From positions 1 to 31,229 of IMG/VR virus record IMGVR_UViG_3300017716_002651: 31,229 bases of DNA; one strand, written 5' to 3'. The DNA is from a virus (taxonomy: Duplodnaviria > Caudoviricetes). Position 1 is the stretch's first letter, and each line of letters starts with the position of its first letter. Under the pieces are notes generated by a model that was not told the origin of the DNA, did not search any database, and saw only the letters and a list, made by a program, of their open reading frames with translations. Positions 6,978 through 29,448 of this stretch are shown here, in pieces. The translations under genes and the position numbers were made by a program.

Positions 6978-7221
6978 ATGGAAGTTTGGAAAGAAATTCC
7001 TGGTTACAAAGGTTATGAAGTATCTAGTTTTGGAAATGTTAAGTCAATAAGATTTAATAAACAACGTATTTTAAAAGCTGGTAAAAATACTGATGGTTAT
7101 TTGCTATAAAAATAAATGGTTAGCAAGATATAAAGGTAAATATGTTGGTATATTCAATACAGAACTCGAAGCCAACGAAGCCGTTCAAAACTACATTTTA
7201 AACTTAAAAACACAAATATGA
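6978..7221 (+). pseudogene. Internally deleted NUMOD4-HNH-AP2 homing endonuclease
   Basis: MEVWKEIPGYKGYEVSSFGNVKS...TDGYLL* followed out of frame by NKWLARYKGKYVGIFNTELEANEAVQNYIL, matching the two ends of 14352..15008; HNH core absent. Confidence 0.85.
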
Positions 7222-7868: not shown

Positions 7869-8078
7869 ATGGCAAAAATAACACCAGAAATACAAGTTGT
7901 AGAATCTATTAAAGATGAAAAACAACAGAAAGAAAAGGCTTTAATTGCTAATGAAGGTAAGGTTAGGCAAAATAACAGAAAGAAAACCAAGGCAAGAAAC
8001 CACATTCAAGTAATTTGGTATCAAGATGGTTCAACCTTTCCACCTGTTTTAAGAAAAAAAATCATTAAACACATTTAA
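7869..8078 (+). CDS. Small basic hypothetical protein
   Basis: 69-aa K/R-rich ORF. Confidence 0.5.
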   Translation: MAKITPEIQVVESIKDEKQQKEKALIANEGKVRQNNRKKTKARNHIQVIWYQDGSTFPPVLRKKIIKHI

Positions 8079-8082
8079 AAAC

Positions 8083-8415
8083 ATGAAAAAACAAATAGAA
8101 TTCGACTTCGCTAAATGGGGTCAAAAAGGGATAAGTATTAAGTACAATAAAATACATGACGTTTCGGCTATAATGAAGTCATCTATTCAGTATTTATATG
8201 TTATAGAATATATAGGCTATTTCAGCTTAGGTAAAAAGAATTTAGCTTGCGCTGACAGATGCGACTTGGTTATGTATGAAGAAGTAAAGCCTAGAGAGTT
8301 TTGGGTGAATGTTTATGAAGATGGTTTTTCATTTTTATATGATAGGAAAGCCGAAGCTTACCTGTGTCTTGATATAGGTGGTAAAACTATTAAACTAGTG
8401 GAGGTAATAGAATGA
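8083..8415 (+). CDS. Hypothetical protein, paralog of 8520
   Basis: Shares MKKQIxFDFAKWGQxGIS and EEVKPREFW with 8520..8915. Confidence 0.7.
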   Translation: MKKQIEFDFAKWGQKGISIKYNKIHDVSAIMKSSIQYLYVIEYIGYFSLGKKNLACADRCDLVMYEEVKPREFWVNVYEDGFSFLYDRKAEAYLCLDIGGKTIKLVEVIE

Positions 8416-8519
8416 TAGTAACAGGAACGCAATGCCAGTTAATGGCACAATACTTACTGCAATTACATCCAAGCTAAATTCAAGATTCCATAACCAAAAC
8501 AGATTTAACTTTAATTAGA

Positions 8520-8915
8520 ATGAAAAAACAAATTGATTTCGACTTCGCTAAATGGGGTCAAGAGGGGATAAGTGTAGAATATAACAGGAAAACAATTTTA
8601 ACATTGCACATAAACCCCTTTAACAACGAATACTATTATGGAATAATAAATGAGAATTTGGCGTTTATTGCACCTGCTACACCCTTAACAATGTTTGAAG
8701 AAGTAAAACCTAGAGAGTTTTGGGCACAATACATCATTGCTGATTTAACCGACAAAGCAAATGAAGCAACAGAACTATTTGAGATTGAGGCTTTAAAATT
8801 AGAGGCTCAAAGATTAGGATTGGAGATTGACTTCGATTCTATCTGGGATGAATCAGTAAAACAATTTGTGCAATTGCAACGTGACCAATTATACTTTAAT
8901 ACCTTTGGCATATGA
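8520..8915 (+). CDS. Hypothetical protein, chimeric paralog of 8083
   Basis: Homologous up to EEVKPREFW, then an unrelated C-terminus. Confidence 0.7.
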   Translation: MKKQIDFDFAKWGQEGISVEYNRKTILTLHINPFNNEYYYGIINENLAFIAPATPLTMFEEVKPREFWAQYIIADLTDKANEATELFEIEALKLEAQRLGLEIDFDSIWDESVKQFVQLQRDQLYFNTFGI

Positions 8916-9145
8916 GCACTGAAACACTTGAAGAAGCTGAAAAAGTTGCAAAACTAAAATATGGAGCTACTATATATGGTTTAGAAAGGGTAAATGCTTT
9001 TAAAGCAGGTGCTCAATGTCAAGCAGAAAGAATGTATAGTCAAGAAGAAGTTGAAGTAATAGCTAAAGATGCTTATACTATGGGTAGAAACAATATTCTT
9101 ATAGGAGTATTTAACAAATGGTTTGAACAATTTAAAAAGAAATAA
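8912..9145 (+). CDS. Hypothetical protein
   Basis: ETLEEA...FKAGAQCQAERMYSQEEV...WFEQFKKK; ATGA-coupled. Confidence 0.65.
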   Translation: MSTETLEEAEKVAKLKYGATIYGLERVNAFKAGAQCQAERMYSQEEVEVIAKDAYTMGRNNILIGVFNKWFEQFKKK

Positions 9146-9146
9146 T

Positions 9147-9380
9147 ATGACCGCAAAAGAAAAAGCAAAAGAGTTAGTTGATAAATTTTATCAATCACAA
9201 GTAGCAGTTTTATCTAAAAATGGAACTGCTCAATGGGATTTAATTGAATATGAAATAGCCATAAAATCAGCATTGATAGCAGTTGATGAAATAATAAATC
9301 ATCATTCACAAGAACAAGGATTGTATAGGATTGATACATATTATTGGCAAGAAGTAAAAAAAGAAATAGAAAAATTATGA
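9147..9380 (+). CDS. Hypothetical protein
   Basis: MTAKEKAKELVDKF...ALIAVDEII...YWQEVKKEIEKL. Confidence 0.7.
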   Translation: MTAKEKAKELVDKFYQSQVAVLSKNGTAQWDLIEYEIAIKSALIAVDEIINHHSQEQGLYRIDTYYWQEVKKEIEKL

Positions 9381-9664
9381 GCACTGAAGATTATATTAAA
9401 GATTTAGTATCTGAAATATCAGATAATGGATGTCTTATTCCAACAGATCTACTTACCCATAACCTACAAAACCTTGTTGACTTCGCAAAGGCTGAACAAG
9501 TAATTGAAGAAACTAAACGCTGGTCAGATGCTTTAGCGAAAGAAATAGAGCCTAAAAATATAATTTTAGACGAGCCTAAAAAAAAATTTAGAGTAGTCCA
9601 AAAAGGTATTTTAACCACAAATGAAAATGCCTATGGTGATGGGGCAGCAGATTTACCAAACTAA
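9377..9664 (+). CDS. Hypothetical protein
   Basis: MSTEDY start is ATGA-coupled to the previous stop. Confidence 0.6.
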   Translation: MSTEDYIKDLVSEISDNGCLIPTDLLTHNLQNLVDFAKAEQVIEETKRWSDALAKEIEPKNIILDEPKKKFRVVQKGILTTNENAYGDGAADLPN

Positions 9665-9666
9665 TT

Positions 9667-9945
9667 ATGATTAAAAAAGTGTTATCTTTTTCTGACTGGC
9701 TTAATTTTGGATTCACTCTTCCTAAAAATGATTCCTTTGCAAAATGGAATAAGGAAGGTAAGGAATTAAGGAAGTCAAGAATTGCTCAGATCTGTGATAT
9801 ATGTGATATTTCCAGCACCACTGTTATAAACATTGAAAAGGGAACATTCTATAAAGATATTTACGCTGAGGCAATTGTTAGTTTAGCTGAAATGCCATTG
9901 GTATTTAAACATAAAGAAAATTATTTTTTGGTGGATTTGGATTAA
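9667..9945 (+). CDS. XRE/Cro-like HTH protein
   Basis: IAQICDICDISSTTVINIEKG. Confidence 0.55.
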   Translation: MIKKVLSFSDWLNFGFTLPKNDSFAKWNKEGKELRKSRIAQICDICDISSTTVINIEKGTFYKDIYAEAIVSLAEMPLVFKHKENYFLVDLD

Positions 9946-9952
9946 CGCCCTA

Positions 9953-10025
9953 TAACGTTCCCACGATAGGGGCTGTTTTCCTATGCGGAAACCTACTTTC
10001 GGCAAATAGACCTTATCGTGTGTTA
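9953..10025. repeat. attC-like site S0
   Basis: TAAC-GTTCC-CACGATAGGGGCTGTTT...AAATAGACCTTATCGTG-T-GTTA. Confidence 0.8.
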
Positions 10026-10064
10026 TCAGCATACCACTAAATACTAATTTAAAAATAAATTCAA

Positions 10065-10358
10065 ATGAAAAATATAATGGATAGTTCGGAAACTTTTGAT
10101 GCTTATGCTGAAATTGATTTATGTTATTACTTATTAAAAATGTTATACGAAAATGTTTCAAAAGAAATCGCACCCATAAATAAAATGGTTGATGATGCTA
10201 CTGGAAAAACTCAATCGGAATTAACAGAAAATAGAAAAACTGCAATTAATTTACTTACAAGAATAATTACAGCAAAGAAGATAATTGAAGCTGACTATTC
10301 AGGTGATGAAACTATGTTATCAAAACTCCTGCTAATCGACAAAGTTGTGGGTTGCTGA
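10065..10358 (+). CDS. Cassette 1 hypothetical protein
   Basis: Flanked by GTTATCAGCATACCAC (10022) and GTGGGTTGCTGATAAC (ends 10362). Confidence 0.7.
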   Translation: MKNIMDSSETFDAYAEIDLCYYLLKMLYENVSKEIAPINKMVDDATGKTQSELTENRKTAINLLTRIITAKKIIEADYSGDETMLSKLLLIDKVVGC

Positions 10359-10449
10359 TAACGTTTTCGGGGCTTTGCGTAGTAGCCCTTAGTAGAAACT
10401 TAAAATTAACCACGACACTTGATAGGGATATTACGCAAAACCCTTTTTA
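10359..10449. repeat. attC-like site S1 (GTTA degenerate to TTTA)
   Basis: TAAC...GGGCTTTGCGTAGTAGCCCT...AGGGATATTACGCAAAACCC...TTTATGTGC. Confidence 0.8.
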
Positions 10450-10486
10450 TGTGCCGTTTTTATTCACAATTTAATATCAAACAAAA

Positions 10487-10714
10487 ATGTCAGAACAAGA
10501 ATTTTACCGAAAAACAGATGAATGTATTGCTCGTTTCAAAAATGGAAAAGAACGATACAGAAATTCAGCAACATTTAACAGAGTAGTTCAAATGCTTGTT
10601 AGAGATGCTGACCCTTACGAAATTATTGACCATTTATGTCAGATGTCAGATGACCAAACAAAAGCATTTGAACAATACATTCATCGTGATACTCGTCCGA
10701 TGGTGATGTCTTAA
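10487..10714 (+). CDS. Cassette 2 hypothetical protein
   Basis: 75 aa; ends in AAAATTGCACCTAAC. Confidence 0.7.
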   Translation: MSEQEFYRKTDECIARFKNGKERYRNSATFNRVVQMLVRDADPYEIIDHLCQMSDDQTKAFEQYIHRDTRPMVMS

Positions 10715-10723
10715 AATTGCACC

Positions 10724-10846
10724 TAACGTATGGTGCTTTGCGAAGGCGGGGCATCGAAGAACAAATGTTGAATTAACCACAAAAGATAATTAGATGCAGA
10801 AAGTTGAAAATATAGATAAAACCCCGCTTTTGCAAAGCACGTGTTA
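10724..10846. repeat. attC-like site S2
   Basis: TAAC-GTATG-GTGCTTTGCGAAGGCGGGG...CCCCGCTTTTGCAAAGCAC-GT-GTTA. Confidence 0.85.
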
Positions 10847-11528
10847 TAAGCAGCCTTTTCGGGTGTTGAATTGCTATGCAGGTATTGGAGGTAATCGTAA
10901 ATACTGGGATGGAAATATTGAAGTAACAGCCATTGAGTTTGATGAAAATATTGCAAGTGTTTATAAAGACTTATATCCAAATGATAATGTTATTGTTTGT
11001 GATGCTCACGAATATCTTTTAAACAATTATGAAAACTTTGATTTTATATGGTGTTCACCGCCTTGCCCTACTCATTCAGTAACTAATCATTTTTTAAATG
11101 CACAAGGAATTAAACGCTATCCCGATATGAAATTGTATCAAGAAATAATATTACTACAAACATTTTTTAAAGGGAAATACATAATTGAAAATGTGAAAAG
11201 CTATTATGAACCATTGATTAAACCGCAGATTAGTGGCAGACATTATTTCTGGGCAAACTTTAAAATTCCTTTGCTAAAATTTGAAAAACAAATAGGCCGA
11301 ATGAATGGAAAGAAAGCAGATTTAGGCGGTAAAATACAAGCAGAATTAAGAACAAACAACCATAAGAAGCTCGGATTTGATTTGTCTAAATATACAGGTA
11401 TTGATAAAGAAAAAGTTTTGAATAATTGTGTTGCTCCCGAAATTGGACTTGCAATATTTCAAAGTGCTTTGGATATTTATGATGCTTCAAAAGTCGAACA
11501 GATTGGATTATTTACGGAGCTCTCATAA
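10794..11528 (+). CDS. Cassette 3: small C5-cytosine DNA methyltransferase
   Basis: Motif I VLNCYAGIGG, motif IV SPPC, motif VI IIENV, late NNCVAP; ATG lies in the loop of S2. Confidence 0.85.
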   Translation: MQKVENIDKTPLLQSTCYKQPFRVLNCYAGIGGNRKYWDGNIEVTAIEFDENIASVYKDLYPNDNVIVCDAHEYLLNNYENFDFIWCSPPCPTHSVTNHFLNAQGIKRYPDMKLYQEIILLQTFFKGKYIIENVKSYYEPLIKPQISGRHYFWANFKIPLLKFEKQIGRMNGKKADLGGKIQAELRTNNHKKLGFDLSKYTGIDKEKVLNNCVAPEIGLAIFQSALDIYDASKVEQIGLFTELS

Positions 11529-11537
11529 GGTTGCTTA

Positions 11538-11664
11538 TAACGGTTTGCAGCTACCAGAAGGGCGGGATTTAGAAAACGAAATTATCAAATTAAAAATAAA
11601 ATTATGTTAGAAAACGAAAACATCAATGAACCACAGAACCCCGCCTTTTTGGTAGGTTCTGTTA
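11538..11664. repeat. attC-like site S3
   Basis: TAAC-GGTTT-GCAGCTACCAGAAGGGCGGG...CCCGCCTTTTTGGTAGGTTC-T-GTTA. Confidence 0.85.
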
Positions 11665-12026
11665 GTGGTAGTGCTTTTCGGCAATTGAAATCATTTTGCT
11701 GCGGGCCTACTCGATTTAAAATTGAAGAAGCTATTAATGAAAGACCAATAGATGTTGTTTCAATTACTGGCGATGGGAATGTTTACATTGTTTTTTATTA
11801 CGAAAAGCAATTCTTCAATTTTAAAGAAACTAAACCGCCTATTGGGGTTGAAGTAATGGCTCATTCAAAAAATTGGATACACGAAGATTATAACAAAACA
11901 GGCATAAGAGTTGGATTTTTGAATGAAGATGAAAACGGAGAATTTATTTCAGCAAAATGGGATAATTCAGGAGATACTTATGAGAATTGCGAAGAAGATA
12001 AGCCTGATGTGTGGTGGTATTTTTAG
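11604..12026 (+). CDS. Cassette 4 hypothetical protein (DUF551-like C-terminus)
   Basis: ETKPPIGVEVMAH...KPDVWWYF; ATG lies in the loop of S3. Confidence 0.65.
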   Translation: MLENENINEPQNPAFLVGSVSGSAFRQLKSFCCGPTRFKIEEAINERPIDVVSITGDGNVYIVFYYEKQFFNFKETKPPIGVEVMAHSKNWIHEDYNKTGIRVGFLNEDENGEFISAKWDNSGDTYENCEEDKPDVWWYF

Positions 12027-12035
12027 CATTACCAC

Positions 12036-12161
12036 TAATGGAGGATTATTTGCGTTTGGTGGGGCGTTACACCACCAAAGATTATTAAAAGCACAAAATT
12101 TTAAAATATGCAGACAGATTCTAAAAAGCACAAAACCCCCACTGACGCAAATAATGTGTTA
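12036..12161. repeat. attC-like site S4 (TAAC degenerate to TAAT)
   Basis: TAAT-GGAGG-ATTATTTGCGTTTGGTGGGG...CCCCACTGACGCAAATAAT-GT-GTTA. Confidence 0.8.
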
Positions 12162-12392
12162 GCGGCTGGTTTTCGTTCGCTTCGTGAGGCAAAACGATTT
12201 TCAAAAATGTATGCTTTATTACAAATTTTAAATAGTCAAGTCGATGCTATGAACGATGCTGCTACAATAGTAACAGATTTTCAAAGTGAATGGGCATACA
12301 CAGAACTTTGCCGAATGAATTTACCTGATGGATTTGATAGACTTGGAAGTTTTGATGAGGCATTACGGTGGTTTTTTCAAACTTGCCGATAA
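12108..12392 (+). CDS. Cassette 5 hypothetical protein
   Basis: ATG lies in the loop of S4; flanks GTTAGCGGCTGGTTT / AAACTTGCCGATAAC. Confidence 0.6.
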   Translation: MQTDSKKHKTPTDANNVLAAGFRSLREAKRFSKMYALLQILNSQVDAMNDAATIVTDFQSEWAYTELCRMNLPDGFDRLGSFDEALRWFFQTCR

Positions 12393-12468
12393 CGGTATCG
12401 GGCTTGGCGAAGTGGCTGAACCCGAATTAAAATAGAATTACTAAACTTAAAAATTAATCAATAATAAA
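12390..12468. repeat. Half attC-like site S5 (right arm missing)
   Basis: TAAC-GGTAT-CGGGCTTGGCGAAGTGGC resembles the left arms of S1 and S7; no complementary arm or GTTA before the ATG at 12469. Confidence 0.7.
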
Positions 12469-12711
12469 ATGGGAGCATCAAGAGAAACTTGCGATTTATT
12501 TTGGATACTGCAATTAGCAAAAAAGTATCCCGACAACAAACAGTATTATTACAACCGTTTTTGGTATGTGATAAAACATCAACCTAAACTTATGTTTGAA
12601 GATACTTTTTTGCAGATATGGTGCAAAATTGTAGGACATAAGAAATATGCACCTGATAACGATAATCCAAAAGAAATTGCTTGTAAACGGTGTCATAAGT
12701 GGGTGTCTTAA
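12469..12711 (+). CDS. Cassette 6 hypothetical protein with Zn-binding motif
   Basis: WCKIVGH...CKRCH; ends in AAAATAGCACATAAC. Confidence 0.65.
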   Translation: MGASRETCDLFWILQLAKKYPDNKQYYYNRFWYVIKHQPKLMFEDTFLQIWCKIVGHKKYAPDNDNPKEIACKRCHKWVS

Positions 12712-12720
12712 AATAGCACA

Positions 12721-12782
12721 TAACGGTTTGCAGCTAACAGATAGTTTTTGCTTTTCGCAAAAATTTTGGTTAGGTGCGGTTA
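12721..12782. repeat. attC-like site S6 (short)
   Basis: TAAC-GGTTT-GCAGCTAAC...TTTTTGC-TTTTC-GCAAAAA...GTTAGGTGC-G-GTTA. Confidence 0.85.
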
Positions 12783-12828
12783 GCAGATAGGCACGGTTCA
12801 ATTAGTAAAAATTTAATTATAAATACAA

Positions 12829-13134
12829 ATGGAAAACTCAAAACAAAGTGAAGTATTCTTTCAACTATTTACACAAGTAAGAAAAGAAGTTGCAGACGAA
12901 AACGGCTACCACTTAGCAACTGCAATAATGAAAACTTTTGATAGGTGGAATATGTGGCAAACGGGTATGCCTGAATTTGATGGCAAATATCTTGTGCTAA
13001 TTGAACACGAACAGGAATGTAAAAATGTTTGGAAGTATCAAGAAGTTGTTGATTGCATCTTTAATAATTGGGTATTGAAAGACAAGCAAAAAGTAATAGG
13101 ATGGAAAAAATTATCAAACGAAGACGGTCAGTAG
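12829..13134 (+). CDS. Cassette 7 hypothetical protein (DUF551-like C-terminus)
   Basis: WQTGMPEFDGKYLVLI...VIGWKKL; flanks GTTAGCAGATAGGCAC / GTGCTTTCTGCTAAC. Confidence 0.65.
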   Translation: MENSKQSEVFFQLFTQVRKEVADENGYHLATAIMKTFDRWNMWQTGMPEFDGKYLVLIEHEQECKNVWKYQEVVDCIFNNWVLKDKQKVIGWKKLSNEDGQ

Positions 13135-13144
13135 TGCTTTCTGC

Positions 13145-13270
13145 TAACGGTTCTCGGCTTGGCGAGGTTGGGGGTTTAAAAACACAATCGCTCAAATTAT
13201 TACTAATGTTTAATAAAAGTACAAATGTTTAAATTAGCACAAATGCCCCAATCTTGCCAAACCGATGTTA
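13145..13270. repeat. attC-like site S7
   Basis: TAAC-GGTTC-TCGGCTTGGCGAGGTTGGGG...CCCCAATCTTGCCAAACCGA-T-GTTA. Confidence 0.85.
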
Positions 13271-13926
13271 GTGGCAGTACGGTTTATTTAATGGACTGTA
13301 TCGCCCTAATGAAAGAATACCCTGATAAGTATTTTGATTTGGCTGTGGTTGACCCACCATATGGAATTAATGCTGATGTAAAAAACAGCACTGATAAAAA
13401 GCAAAGTAAAAAAAGTGCTTCCAACTCTAAAAAGTATGGTGAGCAAAAATGGGATGCCGATGTGCCGACCAAAGAATATTTTATTGAGCTTTTTAGAGTA
13501 TCAAAAGAGCAAATTATTTGGGGTGTAAATTACTATCCATTTGACTTTTTAGCTGGTGGTAGAATCTACTGGGATAAATGCGTAACGATGCCAACTTATA
13601 GCGATGGCGAACTTGCTTATTGTTCTTTACTAAATAGCATAAAATCTGTTAAAATAGCTTGGCACGGTATGATACAACACGATATGAAAAACAAAGAAAC
13701 AAGAATACACCCAACTCAAAAGCCTATAAAGCTATATGATTGGATATTCCAAAACTTTGCAAAGGAAGGCGATAAAATACTTGATACACATTTAGGAAGC
13801 GGAAGTAGTCGGATTTCAGCACACAAAGCAAAATTAGACTTTACAGCTTCAGAGCTTGACCCTACATATTTTGCAAACCAAGAAAAAAGGTTTAACGATT
13901 ATAAAAGTCAGCTCACTTTATGGTAG
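13225..13926 (+). CDS. Cassette 8: N6-adenine/N4-cytosine DNA methyltransferase (beta class)
   Basis: DPPY, HPTQKP, ILDTHLGSGS in beta order; ATG lies in the loop of S7. Confidence 0.9.
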   Translation: MFKLAQMPQSCQTDVSGSTVYLMDCIALMKEYPDKYFDLAVVDPPYGINADVKNSTDKKQSKKSASNSKKYGEQKWDADVPTKEYFIELFRVSKEQIIWGVNYYPFDFLAGGRIYWDKCVTMPTYSDGELAYCSLLNSIKSVKIAWHGMIQHDMKNKETRIHPTQKPIKLYDWIFQNFAKEGDKILDTHLGSGSSRISAHKAKLDFTASELDPTYFANQEKRFNDYKSQLTLW

Positions 13927-13979
13927 TCGGTAGTATTGCCACTAACAAGTTTATACACGCAATTCAATAAATTGAACCT

Positions 13980-14201
13980 ATGGGAATCAACGAAATACAA
14001 AATCAAATAGTAAATTCAGTTCAAAATAATGAACTAAGTAACGATAATTTGGTGCAAATAATTGAACTTTGCGGAACATTTTTGAACTTGCAAACTATTC
14101 CAAAATATGCCAAAGAACACAATCTAAGCTATAACGGAGTAAAGAAATGTAGGGAAGTAAAAGAGATACTAGGAGTTAAATTTGTAATTGATAATAATTG
14201 A
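13980..14201 (+). CDS. Small putative HTH/excisionase-like DNA-binding protein at the array end
   Basis: LQTIPKYAKEHNLSYNGVKK followed by a beta-wing-like VKEILGVKFVID. Confidence 0.6.
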   Translation: MGINEIQNQIVNSVQNNELSNDNLVQIIELCGTFLNLQTIPKYAKEHNLSYNGVKKCREVKEILGVKFVIDNN

Positions 14202-14230
14202 TGGAAATATCATTTTTATATTTATATTTG
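14198..14230 (+). promoter_or_regulatory. Bacteroidota-type promoter
   Basis: TTG-N22-TATATTTG. Confidence 0.6.
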
Positions 14231-14232
14231 TA

Positions 14233-14341
14233 GTGCTAATGTTTAATACTAAATCCATAAAAATAATAAAATAAAAATATTGCAGCTCTAATGGGGTTCA
14301 ACTCCTTTTGGTGTTAAACATTAGCACCCATTAGACTGCAA
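14233..14341 (+). ncRNA. Structured (pseudoknot-like) 5' leader of HNH gene 1
   Basis: 14233-14253 pairs with 14307-14327 (21 bp, two G-U); 14280-14295 pairs with 14327-14341; order A-B-A'-B'. Confidence 0.7.
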
Positions 14342-14351
14342 CAATACTATT

Positions 14352-15008
14352 ATGGAAGAAATTTGGAAAGATATTCCTGGTTACGAGGGTTTGTATCAGG
14401 TAAGCTCTTTTGGTAATGTTAAGTCTTTTAAACGTGGAAAAGAAAAGATAATGAGATTATCATTAACTAATGGTTATCTAAGAGTTAGATTATGTAAAGA
14501 GAACCAAAAAAATATGTTTTCATCCCACGTTTTAGTAGCTATGGCATTTCATGGTCACATTCCTGATGGGTTTAACATAGTTGTTGACCATGACGATAAT
14601 AACCCTTTAAATAATCGTGCTGATAATATAAAATTGATTACTCAACGTGAAAATGCCAGTAAGGATAAAAAAAACAAAACGAGTCAATATGTTGGTGTTT
14701 CATGGAATGAAAGGGATGGGAATTGGGTAACTAGAATTAGATTTGGGAAAAGATATATTCATTTAGGATATTTTGAAACTGAAATTGATGCATCAAATGC
14801 TTACCAAAAGGCTTTTTCAGAATGGGAACAAGGACTAGACTTGAATGTGTTATATCCTAAAAAAATAAATTCTAGCCAATACAAATATGTTTATTGGAAT
14901 AAAAATAAGTGTAAATGGATTGCTGAGTACAAAGGTAAATATTTAGGTCATTTTGATACAGAAATTGAGGCACACAAAGCAGTACAAAAATATATATTAA
15001 CATTATAA
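14352..15008 (+). CDS. NUMOD4-HNH-AP2 homing endonuclease
   Basis: EIWKDIPGYEGLYQVSSFGNVKS; VDHDDNNPLNNRADN; two AP2-like SQYVGV/LGYFETEIDA units. Confidence 0.92.
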   Translation: MEEIWKDIPGYEGLYQVSSFGNVKSFKRGKEKIMRLSLTNGYLRVRLCKENQKNMFSSHVLVAMAFHGHIPDGFNIVVDHDDNNPLNNRADNIKLITQRENASKDKKNKTSQYVGVSWNERDGNWVTRIRFGKRYIHLGYFETEIDASNAYQKAFSEWEQGLDLNVLYPKKINSSQYKYVYWNKNKCKWIAEYKGKYLGHFDTEIEAHKAVQKYILTL

Positions 15009-16511: not shown

Positions 16512-16610
16512 GCACTTCCAGTTATGAAAATATTAAAAAGAAATTCCCGTTCCATACCATTGCCTAAGCATATCTTATGCGCTGGAGTGCCTTTGGTATG
16601 GTTCGGGGAA
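16512..16610 (+). ncRNA. Structured (pseudoknot-like) 5' leader of HNH gene 2
   Basis: GCACTTCCAG (16512-21) with CTGGAGTGC (16582-90); TTCCCGTTCCATACCA (16544-59) with TGGTATGGTTCGGGGAA (16594-610); order A-B-A'-B'. Confidence 0.6.
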
Positions 16611-16618
16611 CTTATTTA

Positions 16619-17161
16619 ATGGAAAATAAAATAGAAATTTGGAAAACAATTGATGGTTTTGAGGATTACCAAATCAGTAATTTTGGTAGGGTTAAGTCAT
16701 TCAAAAAATATGTAACCAACGAGAGAATATTATTACCACGAAAAAATAAAGATGGATATTTACAACTTGATTTATGCCAACATGGTAAACAAAAGAGATT
16801 TAAAATTCACATATTAGTTGCTATATATTATAAAGGTCATGTTCCTGATGGCACTATGAATGTTGTTGTTGACCATGATGATAACAACCCTTTAAACAAC
16901 CACGAGGATAACATAAAACTAATTTCCAATCGTGAAAATTGTAGCAAAGATGTAAAAGAAGGTACAAGCCAATACGTTGGTGTTTATTTTAGAAAAGATA
17001 GAAACAAATGGGTTGCACGTATTCAATTTAAAGGCAGACAAATTAACTTGGGTATGTTTAAACTAGAAATAGAGGCTAAAAACGCTTACGATAAGGCACT
17101 TAATGAATGGAAACAAGGGTTAGACCTTAATATATTATACCCAAAAAAAGTACAAAAATAA
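16619..17161 (+). CDS. NUMOD4-HNH-AP2 homing endonuclease (paralog of 14352)
   Basis: EIWKTIDGFEDYQISNFGRVKS; VVDHDDNNPLNNHEDN; one AP2-like unit; start moved to MENKIEIW. Confidence 0.92.
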   Translation: MENKIEIWKTIDGFEDYQISNFGRVKSFKKYVTNERILLPRKNKDGYLQLDLCQHGKQKRFKIHILVAIYYKGHVPDGTMNVVVDHDDNNPLNNHEDNIKLISNRENCSKDVKEGTSQYVGVYFRKDRNKWVARIQFKGRQINLGMFKLEIEAKNAYDKALNEWKQGLDLNILYPKKVQK

Positions 17162-23106: not shown

Positions 23107-23766
23107 ATGGAAACAAAGTATGTTGGGTATTTTCGTGTGAGTACCAAAGACCAAGGAGAATCAGGTTTGGGGTTACAATCTCAGCGACAATCTGTAAATA
23201 AAATGTTTGGTGAGTGCATTGCAGAATTTACCGAGGTAGAAAGTGGCAGGAAGAAAAACCGACCTGAGTTGTTAAAGGCCATTGAAATGTGCAAACAGAA
23301 AGGTGCTACATTGGTAGTGGCTAAATTAGATAGGCTTTCTCGTGATCCGTTATTTGTATTTACTCTTAGAGATAGTGGTGTGAAGTTTATTGCAGCAGAT
23401 AATGTTCATGCCAATGACCTTACAATAGGTTTGTTAGCAGTTATTGCTGGTAATGAAGCAACATTAATAAGAACTAGAACAAAGGCAGCACTTGCAGTTA
23501 AGAAACAACAATTAGCACTAGAAGGGAAGCGTTTAGGCTGCCCAAATTTAACATCAACAGGCAGAACTATTCAAGAGGTAATCGCTGAGAATCGTAAATG
23601 TAGGGTATATTCCAAGCCTGATTCTGAAAAGGTAAGGACATTAAAGATTTTAAAGGATGCTGGACAGCCAATGGATGAAGTTCAAAGGGTAGCCACACAG
23701 TTATTTGGAAAGACAATTTCAAAAGTTACAATTTATTCATATTTAAAATCATACCAAGCAGTATAA
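23107..23766 (+). CDS. Small serine recombinase (resolvase/invertase)
   Basis: YFRVST catalytic Ser, ESG, RPEL, KLDRLSR, C-terminal HTH ISKVTIYSYL; promoter TTG-N19-TATCTTTG at 23072-23101. Confidence 0.93.
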   Translation: METKYVGYFRVSTKDQGESGLGLQSQRQSVNKMFGECIAEFTEVESGRKKNRPELLKAIEMCKQKGATLVVAKLDRLSRDPLFVFTLRDSGVKFIAADNVHANDLTIGLLAVIAGNEATLIRTRTKAALAVKKQQLALEGKRLGCPNLTSTGRTIQEVIAENRKCRVYSKPDSEKVRTLKILKDAGQPMDEVQRVATQLFGKTISKVTIYSYLKSYQAV

Positions 23767-27333: not shown

Positions 27334-29448
27334 ATGGGAATAAATGTTTTATCATGCTTTGATGGTTGCAGTGGCGGAAATCAAGCATTAGAAAGAATAG
27401 GAATTAAAGTTGACAATTACTTTGCAAGTGAGATTGATAAGTATGCCATCCAAGTTACTATGGCTAATTATCCTAATACTATTCAATTGGGTAGTGTTGT
27501 TGATGTGGATTGTAGTAAACTACCTAAGATTGATTTATTAATTGGAGGTTCACCTTGCCAAAGTTTTAGCTTTGCAGGTAAGCGAAAAGGAATGTCAACA
27601 AAATGCGAAACCGAGATATTAACCCTAGAGCATTACTTGGAACTAAAATCAGATGGTTTTGAATTTGAGGGGCAGTCTTATTTATTTTGGGAGTACATGA
27701 GAATACTAAATGAAGTTAAGCCTAAGTATTTTCTGCTTGAAAATGTAGAAATGGGCGAAAAGTGGGAAAAGGTATTAAGCAAAGCTATTGGAGTAAATGG
27801 TATTCATATTAATTCTGCTTTGGTTTCGGCTCAAAATAGGAAGCGTATCTATTGGTTTAATTTTGGTATTCCTACAATAGATTTGTTTGGAGAAACTACC
27901 TATCACATACCTCAACCAAAAGATAAGGGTATTTTATTGAAAGATATTTTAGATAGTGAAGTTGATGAAAAGTATTTTTTGAGCGAGAAAATGTTAAAAT
28001 CATTAATGGCAGACAAAGACCTTGGTAATGGAGTTTGGAAAGGCATGGAAACAAGGGAACTTTTTGAAAAAGGACATACTATTACAGCTAGAATGGGCAA
28101 ATCTGATAATTACATTAAGATTGATAAAAAAGGAAATGTAAAGGATAACCAAGAAAAAGCATCTTGTTTCACAGCAGGAGGACATTCTGGTGGAAATCAT
28201 TCTGACATGGATTTAATTGTACACAATACAATGCCAAGAAGTAGTACAACAGGGAAAGGAGGAACAGGTCATTTAAGCAGAAACGATGGTAAAACTTATT
28301 GCTTAGATACTGGTAATACAAATGCTGTTGAGATAGTGGCAATGAGAGGCAGAGGTGAAAAAGGTAATATTGAGCAACAACTTAAAACCAATGGTACTGA
28401 TAAAAGTAATTCACTAACAACTGCTCAGAAAGATAACCTTGTAAGACAATTAAACCCATCAACAGAAAGTAATGGTAAGCAACCATACCAACAAAACAGA
28501 ATTTACGATATAGAAGGTATAAGTCCTGCTTTAATGGCTCAATTACCAAAAGGCAGTACAATGATTAATACTTCACGAATTAGAAGATTAACTCCAACCG
28601 AATGCGAAAAATTGCAGACAATGAATCCAGGATATACTAAAAAAGGTTTGGAAAATCATTTCCAATTATTTAACTTTACAGGAAATAAATTTACCTTATG
28701 TCAAAGATTTGTAAAGAAGAAAATTGTAACCAACCAATTTCAAGTAGAGAAACTGAATTATGCCACAAACACCATTATAGACTTATTAGAAACGGAACAA
28801 CTGAATTATCAAGATCACTTGTTGACCACTCTAAAAAATGTATCGTGGATGGTTGTGAACGAAAGCAACAATCTTCAACAGAAACGTGTCTTATGCACTA
28901 TAAAAGATGGAAAAGATATGGGGCATTTATTATTCCCGAAAGAATTAATAAATCAGAATTTAAATGTAAGTTTTGTGATACGAAAGTTGGAAGGTCAGGA
29001 AGCCTTGGAATGTGTAACAAACATTTCCAAATGTTCAGATTACATGGAGACCCATTACATACCGACCAAAGAAGGCTTGCTCCAAACGCATACGGATATT
29101 ATAGAGATACCGATGGAGTCGAATTTCACAGAAAAATTGCTGAACAAAAAATTGGTAGAAAACTTATTAAGGGAGTCGAAGTCGTACATCATATTGACCT
29201 TAATAAAATTAATAATAACCCAAGCAATTTACAAGTCCTTACAAAATCAGAACACGCCCGTACACATCAACAGCTTAATAAAATTGCAGGACAACTCATT
29301 AGAGCTGGAGTTATTGTATATAGAAACGGAGAATATTGTATCAATTTCTGATAGTATGCGTTACAAAATGATTGGAAATGGTTGGACAATTTCTGTGATA
29401 GCCCACATATTTAGTTACCTCAACCTATCTTCAGAAACAACTTCCTAA
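27334..29448 (+). CDS. C5-cytosine DNA methyltransferase with ~230-codon insertion between motifs IX and X
   Basis: VLSCFDG, GGSPCQ, LLENV, QNRKRIYW, repeated variable-region units, RRLTPTECEKLQT, then insertion, then SDSMRYKMIGNGW. Confidence 0.92.
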   Translation: MGINVLSCFDGCSGGNQALERIGIKVDNYFASEIDKYAIQVTMANYPNTIQLGSVVDVDCSKLPKIDLLIGGSPCQSFSFAGKRKGMSTKCETEILTLEHYLELKSDGFEFEGQSYLFWEYMRILNEVKPKYFLLENVEMGEKWEKVLSKAIGVNGIHINSALVSAQNRKRIYWFNFGIPTIDLFGETTYHIPQPKDKGILLKDILDSEVDEKYFLSEKMLKSLMADKDLGNGVWKGMETRELFEKGHTITARMGKSDNYIKIDKKGNVKDNQEKASCFTAGGHSGGNHSDMDLIVHNTMPRSSTTGKGGTGHLSRNDGKTYCLDTGNTNAVEIVAMRGRGEKGNIEQQLKTNGTDKSNSLTTAQKDNLVRQLNPSTESNGKQPYQQNRIYDIEGISPALMAQLPKGSTMINTSRIRRLTPTECEKLQTMNPGYTKKGLENHFQLFNFTGNKFTLCQRFVKKKIVTNQFQVEKLNYATNTIIDLLETEQLNYQDHLLTTLKNVSWMVVNESNNLQQKRVLCTIKDGKDMGHLLFPKELINQNLNVSFVIRKLEGQEALECVTNISKCSDYMETHYIPTKEGLLQTHTDIIEIPMESNFTEKLLNKKLVENLLRESKSYIILTLIKLIITQAIYKSLQNQNTPVHINSLIKLQDNSLELELLYIETENIVSISDSMRYKMIGNGWTISVIAHIFSYLNLSSETTS
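28647..28678 (+). promoter_or_regulatory. Internal promoter for the nested HNH gene
   Basis: TTTG-N20-TAACTTTA (one mismatch to TAnnTTTG), overlapping hairpin TTGGAAA-ATCA-TTTCCAA, 19 nt before ATG 28698. Confidence 0.55.
28698..29351 (+). CDS. HNH endonuclease nested out of frame in the MTase
   Basis: Three Cys/His repeats (C...C...C-x2-H-x2-R...G) and HRKIAE...VVHHIDLNKINNNPSNL...EHARTH. Confidence 0.9.
   Translation: MSKICKEENCNQPISSRETELCHKHHYRLIRNGTTELSRSLVDHSKKCIVDGCERKQQSSTETCLMHYKRWKRYGAFIIPERINKSEFKCKFCDTKVGRSGSLGMCNKHFQMFRLHGDPLHTDQRRLAPNAYGYYRDTDGVEFHRKIAEQKIGRKLIKGVEVVHHIDLNKINNNPSNLQVLTKSEHARTHQQLNKIAGQLIRAGVIVYRNGEYCINF

Follow-up and report, generated by a model that had tools for sequence, protein, structure and literature searches.

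Hairpin-led gene cassettes of a phage point to a Bacteroidota recombination system related to integrons

A virus record of 31,229 nucleotides (nt), IMGVR_UViG_3300017716_002651, which is linear and ~69% complete and whose whole length we call the window, raises the question of what DNA hairpins are doing in front of its genes. Eight short genes lie on the + strand within positions 9954-13962, two of them encoding DNA methyltransferases, and each is preceded by a hairpin; seven hairpins are complete (S0-S4, S6 and S7), one (S5) is broken, and the row closes with a hairpin-less half-site at 13944. A first-pass annotation had seen in the hairpins sites of non-canonical geometry with G-T mispairs biased to the sense strand, and had supposed that a distinct recombinase recognizes the structure of the + strand, as single-stranded DNA or as RNA. 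We consider it likely, from comparison with related sites, that the hairpins are single-strand DNA recombination sites of a Bacteroidota integron-like system, with a predicted cut AA|C on the strand that folds preferentially, hereafter the folding strand. The best reading of the system appears to be a Bacteroidota sister lineage of integrons that is run back-to-front in phages. Comparative evidence is strong for the mobile unit, the crossover point and the enzyme linkage; what we say of catalysis, of the use of a single strand and of the part played by the wobbles is prediction. The phage host is likely a member of the Bacteroidota, since the site motifs were matched in the genome collection almost exclusively by Bacteroidota, plus a few allied genomes, and among isolates by Flavobacterium phages.

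The unit that moves was read from eight Lillamyvirus isolates compared in 7 pairs. Clean insertions or deletions (indels) of 439, 342 and 476 base pairs (bp) each consist of a hairpin and the gene after it, and the four distinct clean junctions share 6-12 letters, always including TAAC, with no duplication. In sniff9-1 and lillamy9-6 the 439-bp unit stands in the middle of the array; in lillamy9-7 it occupies the terminal half-site. A hairpin-less site at the integrase end thus appears to serve for insertion, as attI does, judging by the motif-bearing half-sites and by the position of this unit in lillamy9-7, where insertion is the presumed order of events. Across 609 site contexts, the hairpin goes with its GTT-side flank in 22 families and with its AAC-side flank in none. 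Matches between window cassettes 2, 6 and 7 and their cassette relatives end at TAAC, and S6 together with the cassette 7 gene (12719-13148) recurs, letter for letter, between other neighbours in sequencing run X2. Taken together, these alignments show the mobile unit to be a hairpin with its downstream gene, bounded by TAAC at both ends, exact copies of which have been gained, lost and moved among isolate phage genomes. A strict test of linkage to both flanks had just 3 homologous pairs, from 195 cassettes, to work with, and contigs from 8 of 24 sequencing runs, which drop rare variants, contained no joint excising a cassette at AAC.

The two ends of a cassette also match each other. In the window, the 12-nt flank behind each GTT was set against the 12 nt ahead of the following AAC; 68 of 84 positions pair, well beyond chance, since only one of 5040 permutations, the real order, reaches that value. 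Integron integrases cut within AAC (PMC5027507). Since the crossover falls at the AAC of the + strand, the + strand would be the cut strand in this phage, provided that the chemistry is that of integrons.

To describe the sites in a larger set, patterns taken from S7 and S3 were used to fetch 123 and 110 viral loci and 122 genome loci, with long flanks for only 80 per search. A detector that counted Watson-Crick pairs only and left the offset free was run over ~360 loci at its strictest cut-off, with reversed sequence as the control. The offset was +4 in 300 of 403 distinct sites and +3 in 58, and it lay between -1 and +1 in only 4, so that the roughly symmetric central spacer of attC is absent; the reversed sequence gave 4 matches in total. 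Window offsets are +4 in S0, S3, S6 and S7, +3 in S2 and S4, and +5 in S1. The core form of the seven window hairpins is AAC with 5-7 unpaired bases on one arm, and 1-2 bases with GTT on the other; the annotated geometry (AAC and ~5 unpaired nt, 1-2 nt and GTT) proved accurate site by site, with TTT in place of GTT in S1 and AAT in place of AAC in S4. Its departure from attC was borne out as well. The canonical attC register with its bulge, at 7/7, fitted 0 of 618 sites on either strand, and the standard attC model, whose fit the first-pass annotation had named as grounds for giving up the claim, therefore does not describe these sites. Their own register, at 7/7, fitted 530 of the 618, and a bulge improved the fit in 22. 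Class 1 attC controls fitted the canonical register in 5 matches, representing 4 distinct sites (~8 cassettes, 4 loci), but they were chosen by the same score and show only that the model suits attC.

Stem pairs covary freely among 116 dereplicated +4 sites, in which position 10 is C-A in 58 and position 9 is G-G in 25; the C-A mismatches annotated in S1 and S7 and the G-G mismatches in S3 and S6 are indeed present. The folded site has two-fold symmetry: its outer and inner boxes each contain a core triad and, eight positions away from it, a G-T pair. The outer box consists of the cassette's own ends, over ~12 bp, and forms only once these ends meet. Between the boxes, the spacer measures 7-9 nt on the 5' (cut) arm and always 4 nt on the 3' arm. 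Short variants of ~50-60 nt, with a 5' spacer of 5-7 nt and a common short loop, also occur (L003, L008, L009, L024, L031, and NC_028924 near 30058); some have a near-symmetric inner loop, and these were missed by the detector, seen by eye and kept outside the counts.

In the outer stems of the dereplicated sites, G-T pairs outnumber A-C pairs by 192 to 9. Because 110 of the 192 lie at one position and 61 at a second, leaving 21 against the 9 A-C, the bias is mostly a fixed feature of a near-invariant position instead of a diffuse one. Of the 116 dereplicated sites, which were scored on Watson-Crick pairs only, 110 carry the inner-box G-T eight positions from the core triad, as do 79 of 84 once seed-matched sites are removed. 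The outer-box G-T at +8 is found in 128 of 140 cassettes with genes sense to the folding strand and in 34 of 35 antisense cassettes; this position entered no site-picking score, and the cassettes had been selected for at least 8/12 flank matches. When circle junctions of the larger set were folded as DNA, the folding strand was favoured in 133 of 136 and 32 of 32 cases. The one-strand asymmetry claimed from the window thus extends to the larger set. Among the window's own reconstituted junctions, the + strand folded better in 6 of 7, by 5-8 kcal/mol, with S1 as the exception (-14.6 versus -15.2). The individual G-T pairs listed in the first-pass annotation are all there, two each in the outer stems of S2, S3 and S7 and others in the gene-flanking pairs of cassettes 3, 4, 5 and 8, to which cassette 2 can be added. 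As in attC, the recombined strand is the more stable one and the richer in G-T mispairs; ordinary attC sites carry 1.24 G-T on the recombined strand versus 0.39 (PMC5027507). Two things are new relative to attC: the G-T occupies a single fixed position in each box, and there are no bulges. We also observed the Bacteroidota promoter motif TAnnTTTG on the non-folding strand, which is the coding strand in hosts, in 20 of the 116 sites versus 8.1 in shuffles (4 versus 4.3 on the folding strand).

Arrays elsewhere are accompanied by an enzyme. All 25 rows, from 23 distinct contigs, have their tyrosine recombinase on the 3' side of the folding strand, a few of these recombinases being low-scoring fragments. 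In the 14 array-adjacent recombinases examined, the catalytic residues R, K, H-x-x-R, H and Y are invariant, and the IntI-specific I2 insertion is absent from every one when aligned against IntI1. None reaches the TIGR02249 cut-off of 265 bits (best, 213.8); NF040815 (XerA-type) is the best NCBIfam model for all 14, with 3 above its cut-off of 220. The N-terminal Pfam domain Phage_int_SAM_4, as in IntI1, was found in 7 of 7 scanned, and the best fold matches to the predicted structure of one recombinase (predicted local distance difference test score, 85) are XerA (5hxy) and VchIntIA (2a3v). By these sequence features, the array enzyme in hosts and some phages is an IntI-related tyrosine recombinase without I2, which answers to the distinct recombinase anticipated for the window, although it is found in relatives and not in the window contig. 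The insertion has been described as defining IntI and as housing the bulged bases (PMC4792948; 10.1101/2022.02.06.479319).

A profile of this recombinase matched 71 of 201 sampled Bacteroidota genomes. In a test seeded by the enzyme and not by the sites, sites were present within ~10 kilobases (kb) of the recombinase gene in 14 of 20 recombinase-centred regions versus 1 of 19 control regions 100-200 kb away, with the same sidedness relative to the recombinase in 33 of 33 sites. No site was detected in the Freya and Ingeline phage regions with related enzymes. A search of isolate-phage proteins at E 1e-30 matched the recombinase in no Lillamyvirus, and these phages would therefore depend on a host enzyme. 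In 60 hairpin-less end sites the inner-box motif lies at offset 6, not 9 (mean score +1.2; other offsets at most -8.8), as it does in the window's own end site. Many host recombinases carry an extra N-terminal domain of ~55-100 amino acids (aa) (L201:1828-2871, L199, L190, L194, L186, L161) that is beta-rich in the model, absent from phage copies and of no named family. A HARP-like identity of this domain was unsupported, with only sub-threshold DUF5710 matches and unnamed Atlas clusters below 0.9.

Gene direction separates the two groups of arrays. Relative to the folding strand, viral contigs have 222 sense genes, 2 antisense and 14 unclear (by locus 82/2/4), and bacterial genome contigs have 6 sense, 45 antisense and 6 unclear (by locus 4/21/1); unseeded host regions contain 11 antisense versus 4 sense. 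The attC arrangement, in which the site follows the gene and the recombined strand is antisense, is thus found in the bacterial contigs and not in the window or the phages. Folding preference and outer-box wobble are alike in phage and bacterial groups, and the asymmetry belongs to the site's own polarity, not to a transcript. Because fold and wobble stay the same whatever the gene strand, the ground for RNA recognition is removed. The proposal of structure-specific recognition of the + strand is therefore upheld in part: TAAC crossovers support use of the + strand here, and its recognition as RNA finds no support, nor does the tie between the bias and the sense strand, since the wobble follows hairpin polarity. 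One viral cassette, near-identical in the contigs L267 and L279, follows the host pattern, its gene lying antisense to the folding strand, and is possibly a captured host cassette.

The phage polarity can let a hairpin lead its gene and its loop supply the start codon. In phages, 67 of 151 longest open reading frames (ORFs) of sense cassettes begin within the upstream hairpin, compared with 0 of 36 in antisense cassettes; 32 of the 67 have no in-frame ATG within 90 nt after GTT (GTG and TTG not counted). A-rich sequence ahead of the start codon is the rule in the phylum Bacteroidota, and A occupies -3 at a frequency of 0.58 in loop starts (n = 65), 0.26 in out-of-frame loop ATGs (n = 42) and 0.76 in ordinary starts (n = 72). 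Four window ORFs begin within the upstream hairpin. A fixed reading frame across GTT was considered and rejected, the frames being 1, 0, 2 and 0 in the window and 42/7/18 overall. Reversal in phages may possibly keep the genes in the direction of phage transcription and put the cut strand on the lagging-strand template, a placement that raises excision in integrons (PMC5371416). Since phage genes point towards the half-site, a Pc-type promoter there would be unable to drive the cassettes.

We propose the following scheme. The folding strand, which is the + (coding) strand in this phage, would be marked by the lopsided inner loop and two fixed G-T mispairs, and each recombinase monomer would read one wobble-containing box. 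The wobbles and the loop may select the strand, as bulged bases do in attC; the wobbles could do so because G-T turns into A-C on the other strand. One strand would be exchanged, and the junction would be resolved by replication. On the sequence comparisons, the first element of an array is a full hairpin and the last a half-site without one, and the recombinase sits at the half-site end in hosts and some phages; the genes run antisense to the folding strand in hosts, which is integron polarity, and sense in phages. The present phage would borrow the enzyme from its host or encode it beyond the assembled part. In its widest form, to which we give slightly better than even chances, the proposal is that an independent code for single-strand recombination, composed of an I2-less recombinase, one wobble per box and a lopsided loop, is common to Bacteroidota and their phages. 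This would be an overlooked integron lineage in about a third of the phylum's genomes, used back-to-front by phages, in which hairpins would supply start codons and virulent phages would reshuffle methyltransferase cassettes with the host enzyme.

Several findings weigh against this proposal. The window contig contains no tyrosine recombinase, and a recombinase lies within the 4-5 kb fetched at only 9 of 218 viral loci with sites; 6 of the 20 recombinase regions, in turn, have no detected site. The same gene flank stands behind a different hairpin in 10 families (12 with intermediate cases), and relatives of window cassettes 6 and 7 are among those with a swapped hairpin. This comparison requires either a further, rarer exchange at G|TT or a homologous one between hairpins. 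A second exchange that keeps the 4-nt spacer with the gene was rejected, as swapped hairpins differ up to TGTT. The larger set was seeded by two site types of the window, its loci are related and dereplication is the sole correction; gene direction was called from the longest ATG ORF; and inner-box wobble counts from the later profile-based scans (the gene-direction set and the unseeded regions) are not independent, because the profile rewards the pair. Only 5 of 7 window sites have G-T at +8 in each box, with S4 and S6 lacking the inner wobble, and S1, S4 and S5 are degenerate.

Some of these points would suit hairpins that are repeated expression elements (terminators, RNA stabilisers or translation-start modules), shuffled by homologous recombination or slippage with no dedicated enzyme. 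Loops do give candidate start codons in the 67 of 151 sense cassettes, chimeric and deleted hairpins occur (S5, L370, L380), near-identical hairpins stand ahead of different genes, and the window contig lacks a recombinase. We nevertheless regard this explanation as improbable: the indels join unlike hairpins via only 6-12 shared letters centred on TAAC, the 12-bp complementarity of cassette ends would be useful only in an excised circle, and sidedness to the recombinase is strict. Alternatively, the same recombinase could work like Xer, carrying out a normal second strand exchange on sites that are double-stranded or cruciform, the wobbles being no more than conserved base contacts. In favour of this, I2, the block to a second exchange in IntI (PMC4792948), is missing from the enzyme, XerA-type models give the enzyme its best scores, and double exchanges could account for the hairpin swaps between AAC and GTT. 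Neighbouring stem positions, however, vary while paired, meaning that the fold is kept and not the sequence; spacers of 7-9 and 4 nt are unable to form a symmetric duplex overlap; and one strand is favoured throughout, which makes Xer-like exchange very improbable.

RNA recognition of the hairpins, or an RNA intermediate from the phage transcript that moves the cassettes, seems to us extremely improbable. The folding strand is the mRNA strand in phages by the counts given above, RNA folding energies favour it too (128 of 136), and in 42 of 151 cassettes the unit closes with a TAA resembling a stop codon. Against this, bacterial genes are antisense to the folding strand (45 versus 6) with the outer-box wobble unchanged, the TAAC junctions are clean and free of duplication, a crude scan of all loci found no reverse-transcriptase motif, and the neighbouring enzyme is a tyrosine recombinase; RNA may have had a part in the original making of the cassettes. 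Equally hard to credit are ordinary attC sites served by a classical IntI and merely read in the other direction, for although the AAC/GTT core, the pairing flanks, the G-T surplus of the recombined strand and the attI-like end are integron traits and HattCI called one such site attC in phage P12002L, the 6x5 spacer and bulge register that class 1 controls fit is matched by none of the 618 sites, which largely refutes the idea, the adjacent enzymes lack I2 and miss the TIGR02249 cut-off in 14 of 14, and P12002L_attC1 failed with IntI1.

Read as an array of single-strand recombination sites, the row runs along the + strand from S0 (9954-10024, 71 nt; AAC 9954, GTT 10022), the first of the array, which belongs to the downstream cassette 1 gene (10065-10358, 97 aa, no Pfam family); relatives of this gene were all too short or too distant to use. 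S1 (10360-10448; AAC 10360, altered GTT at 10446) is probably a weakened site. The cassette 2 gene (10487-10714, 75 aa) has no Pfam family; its relative L370 stops at the same TAAC, and 4 of 5 relatives among the matches listed are plain genes without sites. S2 (10725-10845; AAC 10725, GTT 10843) has in its loop an ATG at 10794, at which the longest ORF of cassette 3 begins (10794-11528), a C5 cytosine DNA methyltransferase (PF00145). S3 (11539-11663; AAC 11539, GTT 11661) likewise has an ATG at 11604 in its loop, where the cassette 4 gene starts (11604-12026, 140 aa, no Pfam family). S4 (12037-12160; AAT 12037, GTT 12158) leads the cassette 5 gene (12108-12392, 94 aa), whose stop is the TAA of S5's TAAC. 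S5 (12391 to approximately 12460) keeps only the 5' arm and part of the loop, its 3' arm and GTT having been deleted; relatives L380 and L381 have an intact site there, ahead of the cassette 6 gene (12469-12711, 80 aa), which has the same TAAC end in 4 of 4 relatives. S6 (12722-12781, 60 nt; AAC 12722, GTT 12779) has a shorter, interrupted stem and leads the cassette 7 gene (12829-13134, 101 aa). S7 (13146-13269; AAC 13146, GTT 13267) has an ATG at 13225 in its loop, the start of the longest ORF of cassette 8 (13225-13926), an N6/N4 DNA methyltransferase (PF01555). The terminal half-site (13944-13962) has no hairpin and consists of AAC, 5 nt and the inner-box motif; it is the predicted attI-like insertion point. 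An Rfam scan of 8000-15000 gave three chance-level matches, none at hairpin sites, and a generic repeat finder picked up merely portions of hairpin 5' arms.

Elsewhere in the window, small genes at 8083-9380 share segments, both N-terminal and internal, that are duplicated ~430 nt apart (65 nt at 86% and 34 nt at 94%) and look like a further sign of modular exchange, here without hairpins. A 704-aa C5 methyltransferase ORF at 27334-29448 fully overlaps a 217-aa HNH ORF in another frame (28698-29351), possibly the mark of an inserted homing element or intron. Three mutually related sequences of the NUMOD4/HNH/AP2 endonuclease type lie at 14352-15008, at 16577-17161 and near 6981; two are intact. 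A serine resolvase gene (23107-23766) lies 9 kb from the array; judging by its family, it presumably has the wrong chemistry for hairpin sites.

Integrons are thought to need bulged bases and I2, and a related I2-less enzyme is present here in 71 of the 201 sampled genomes, with cultured phages showing cassettes on the move in the Lillamyvirus comparison. If our reading is right, strand choice in single-strand recombination would have a second solution, and the step preceding the origin of I2 a living candidate; attC models would have overlooked a large cassette pool, and methyltransferase turnover in flavobacterial phages would have a mechanism. Integrons are generally regarded as nearly absent from Bacteroidota, for which earlier In0-only findings and one complete integron in Salinibacter have been reported (PMC9024848). 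Plating differences linked to methyltransferase content were described by Nilsson et al. 2020 (PMC7077304), the available portions of which do not use the words integron, integrase or cassette. The open full-text literature, a coverage that leaves out most subscription journals, yielded no description of this site class or polarity.

One close precedent is that of Qi et al. 2023 (PMC9892861), who described phage clusters of attC sites lacking integron-integrases (CALINs), cassette rows without an integrase in virulent phages that are rich in DNA methyltransferases. Their P12002L_attC1 belongs to the present site class (AAC+7+GCT / AGC+4+GTT), lies upstream of its methyltransferase on the coding strand, and was the only one of six sites not recombined by IntI1 (PMC9892861). 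The sites were treated there as attC and odd directions put down to mosaicism, and the available portions of that paper describe no separate site class or enzyme. In its model and fold matches, the array enzyme resembles the XerA-type or "integron-like" simple tyrosine recombinases (NF040815; Smyshlyaev 2021, PMC8138268), and the IntI insertion is reported as not fully conserved in the integron-like subgroup (PMC8138268). Unlike Xer, which acts on double-stranded dif sites, it flanks hairpin cassette arrays, and many of its host copies have the extra beta-rich N-terminal domain of ~55 aa that belongs to no named family. With integrons, both class 1 and the sedentary chromosomal ones of Vibrio, the system shares the AAC crossover triplet, the folded AAC/GTT site, the complementary cassette ends, a hairpin-less insertion site beside a tyrosine recombinase with Phage_int_SAM_4, a recombined strand that is richer in G-T and has the lower folding energy (PMC5027507) and, in Bacteroidota contigs, the gene polarity. 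It differs from attC in having no extrahelical bases, in an inner loop of ~5x1, a 4-bp stem and a 1x1 mismatch in place of the 6x5 spacer, in the fixed G-T at +8 in both boxes, and in an end complementarity of 12 bp versus 3-9 contiguous bp in 3 distinct class 1 controls; the enzyme differs from IntI in lacking I2; and the phages differ from integrons in carrying their genes on the recombined strand behind the site, with insertion at the 3' end of the gene row. Our verdict, on these comparisons, is that the site is not an attC by its defining features, yet appears to work like one.

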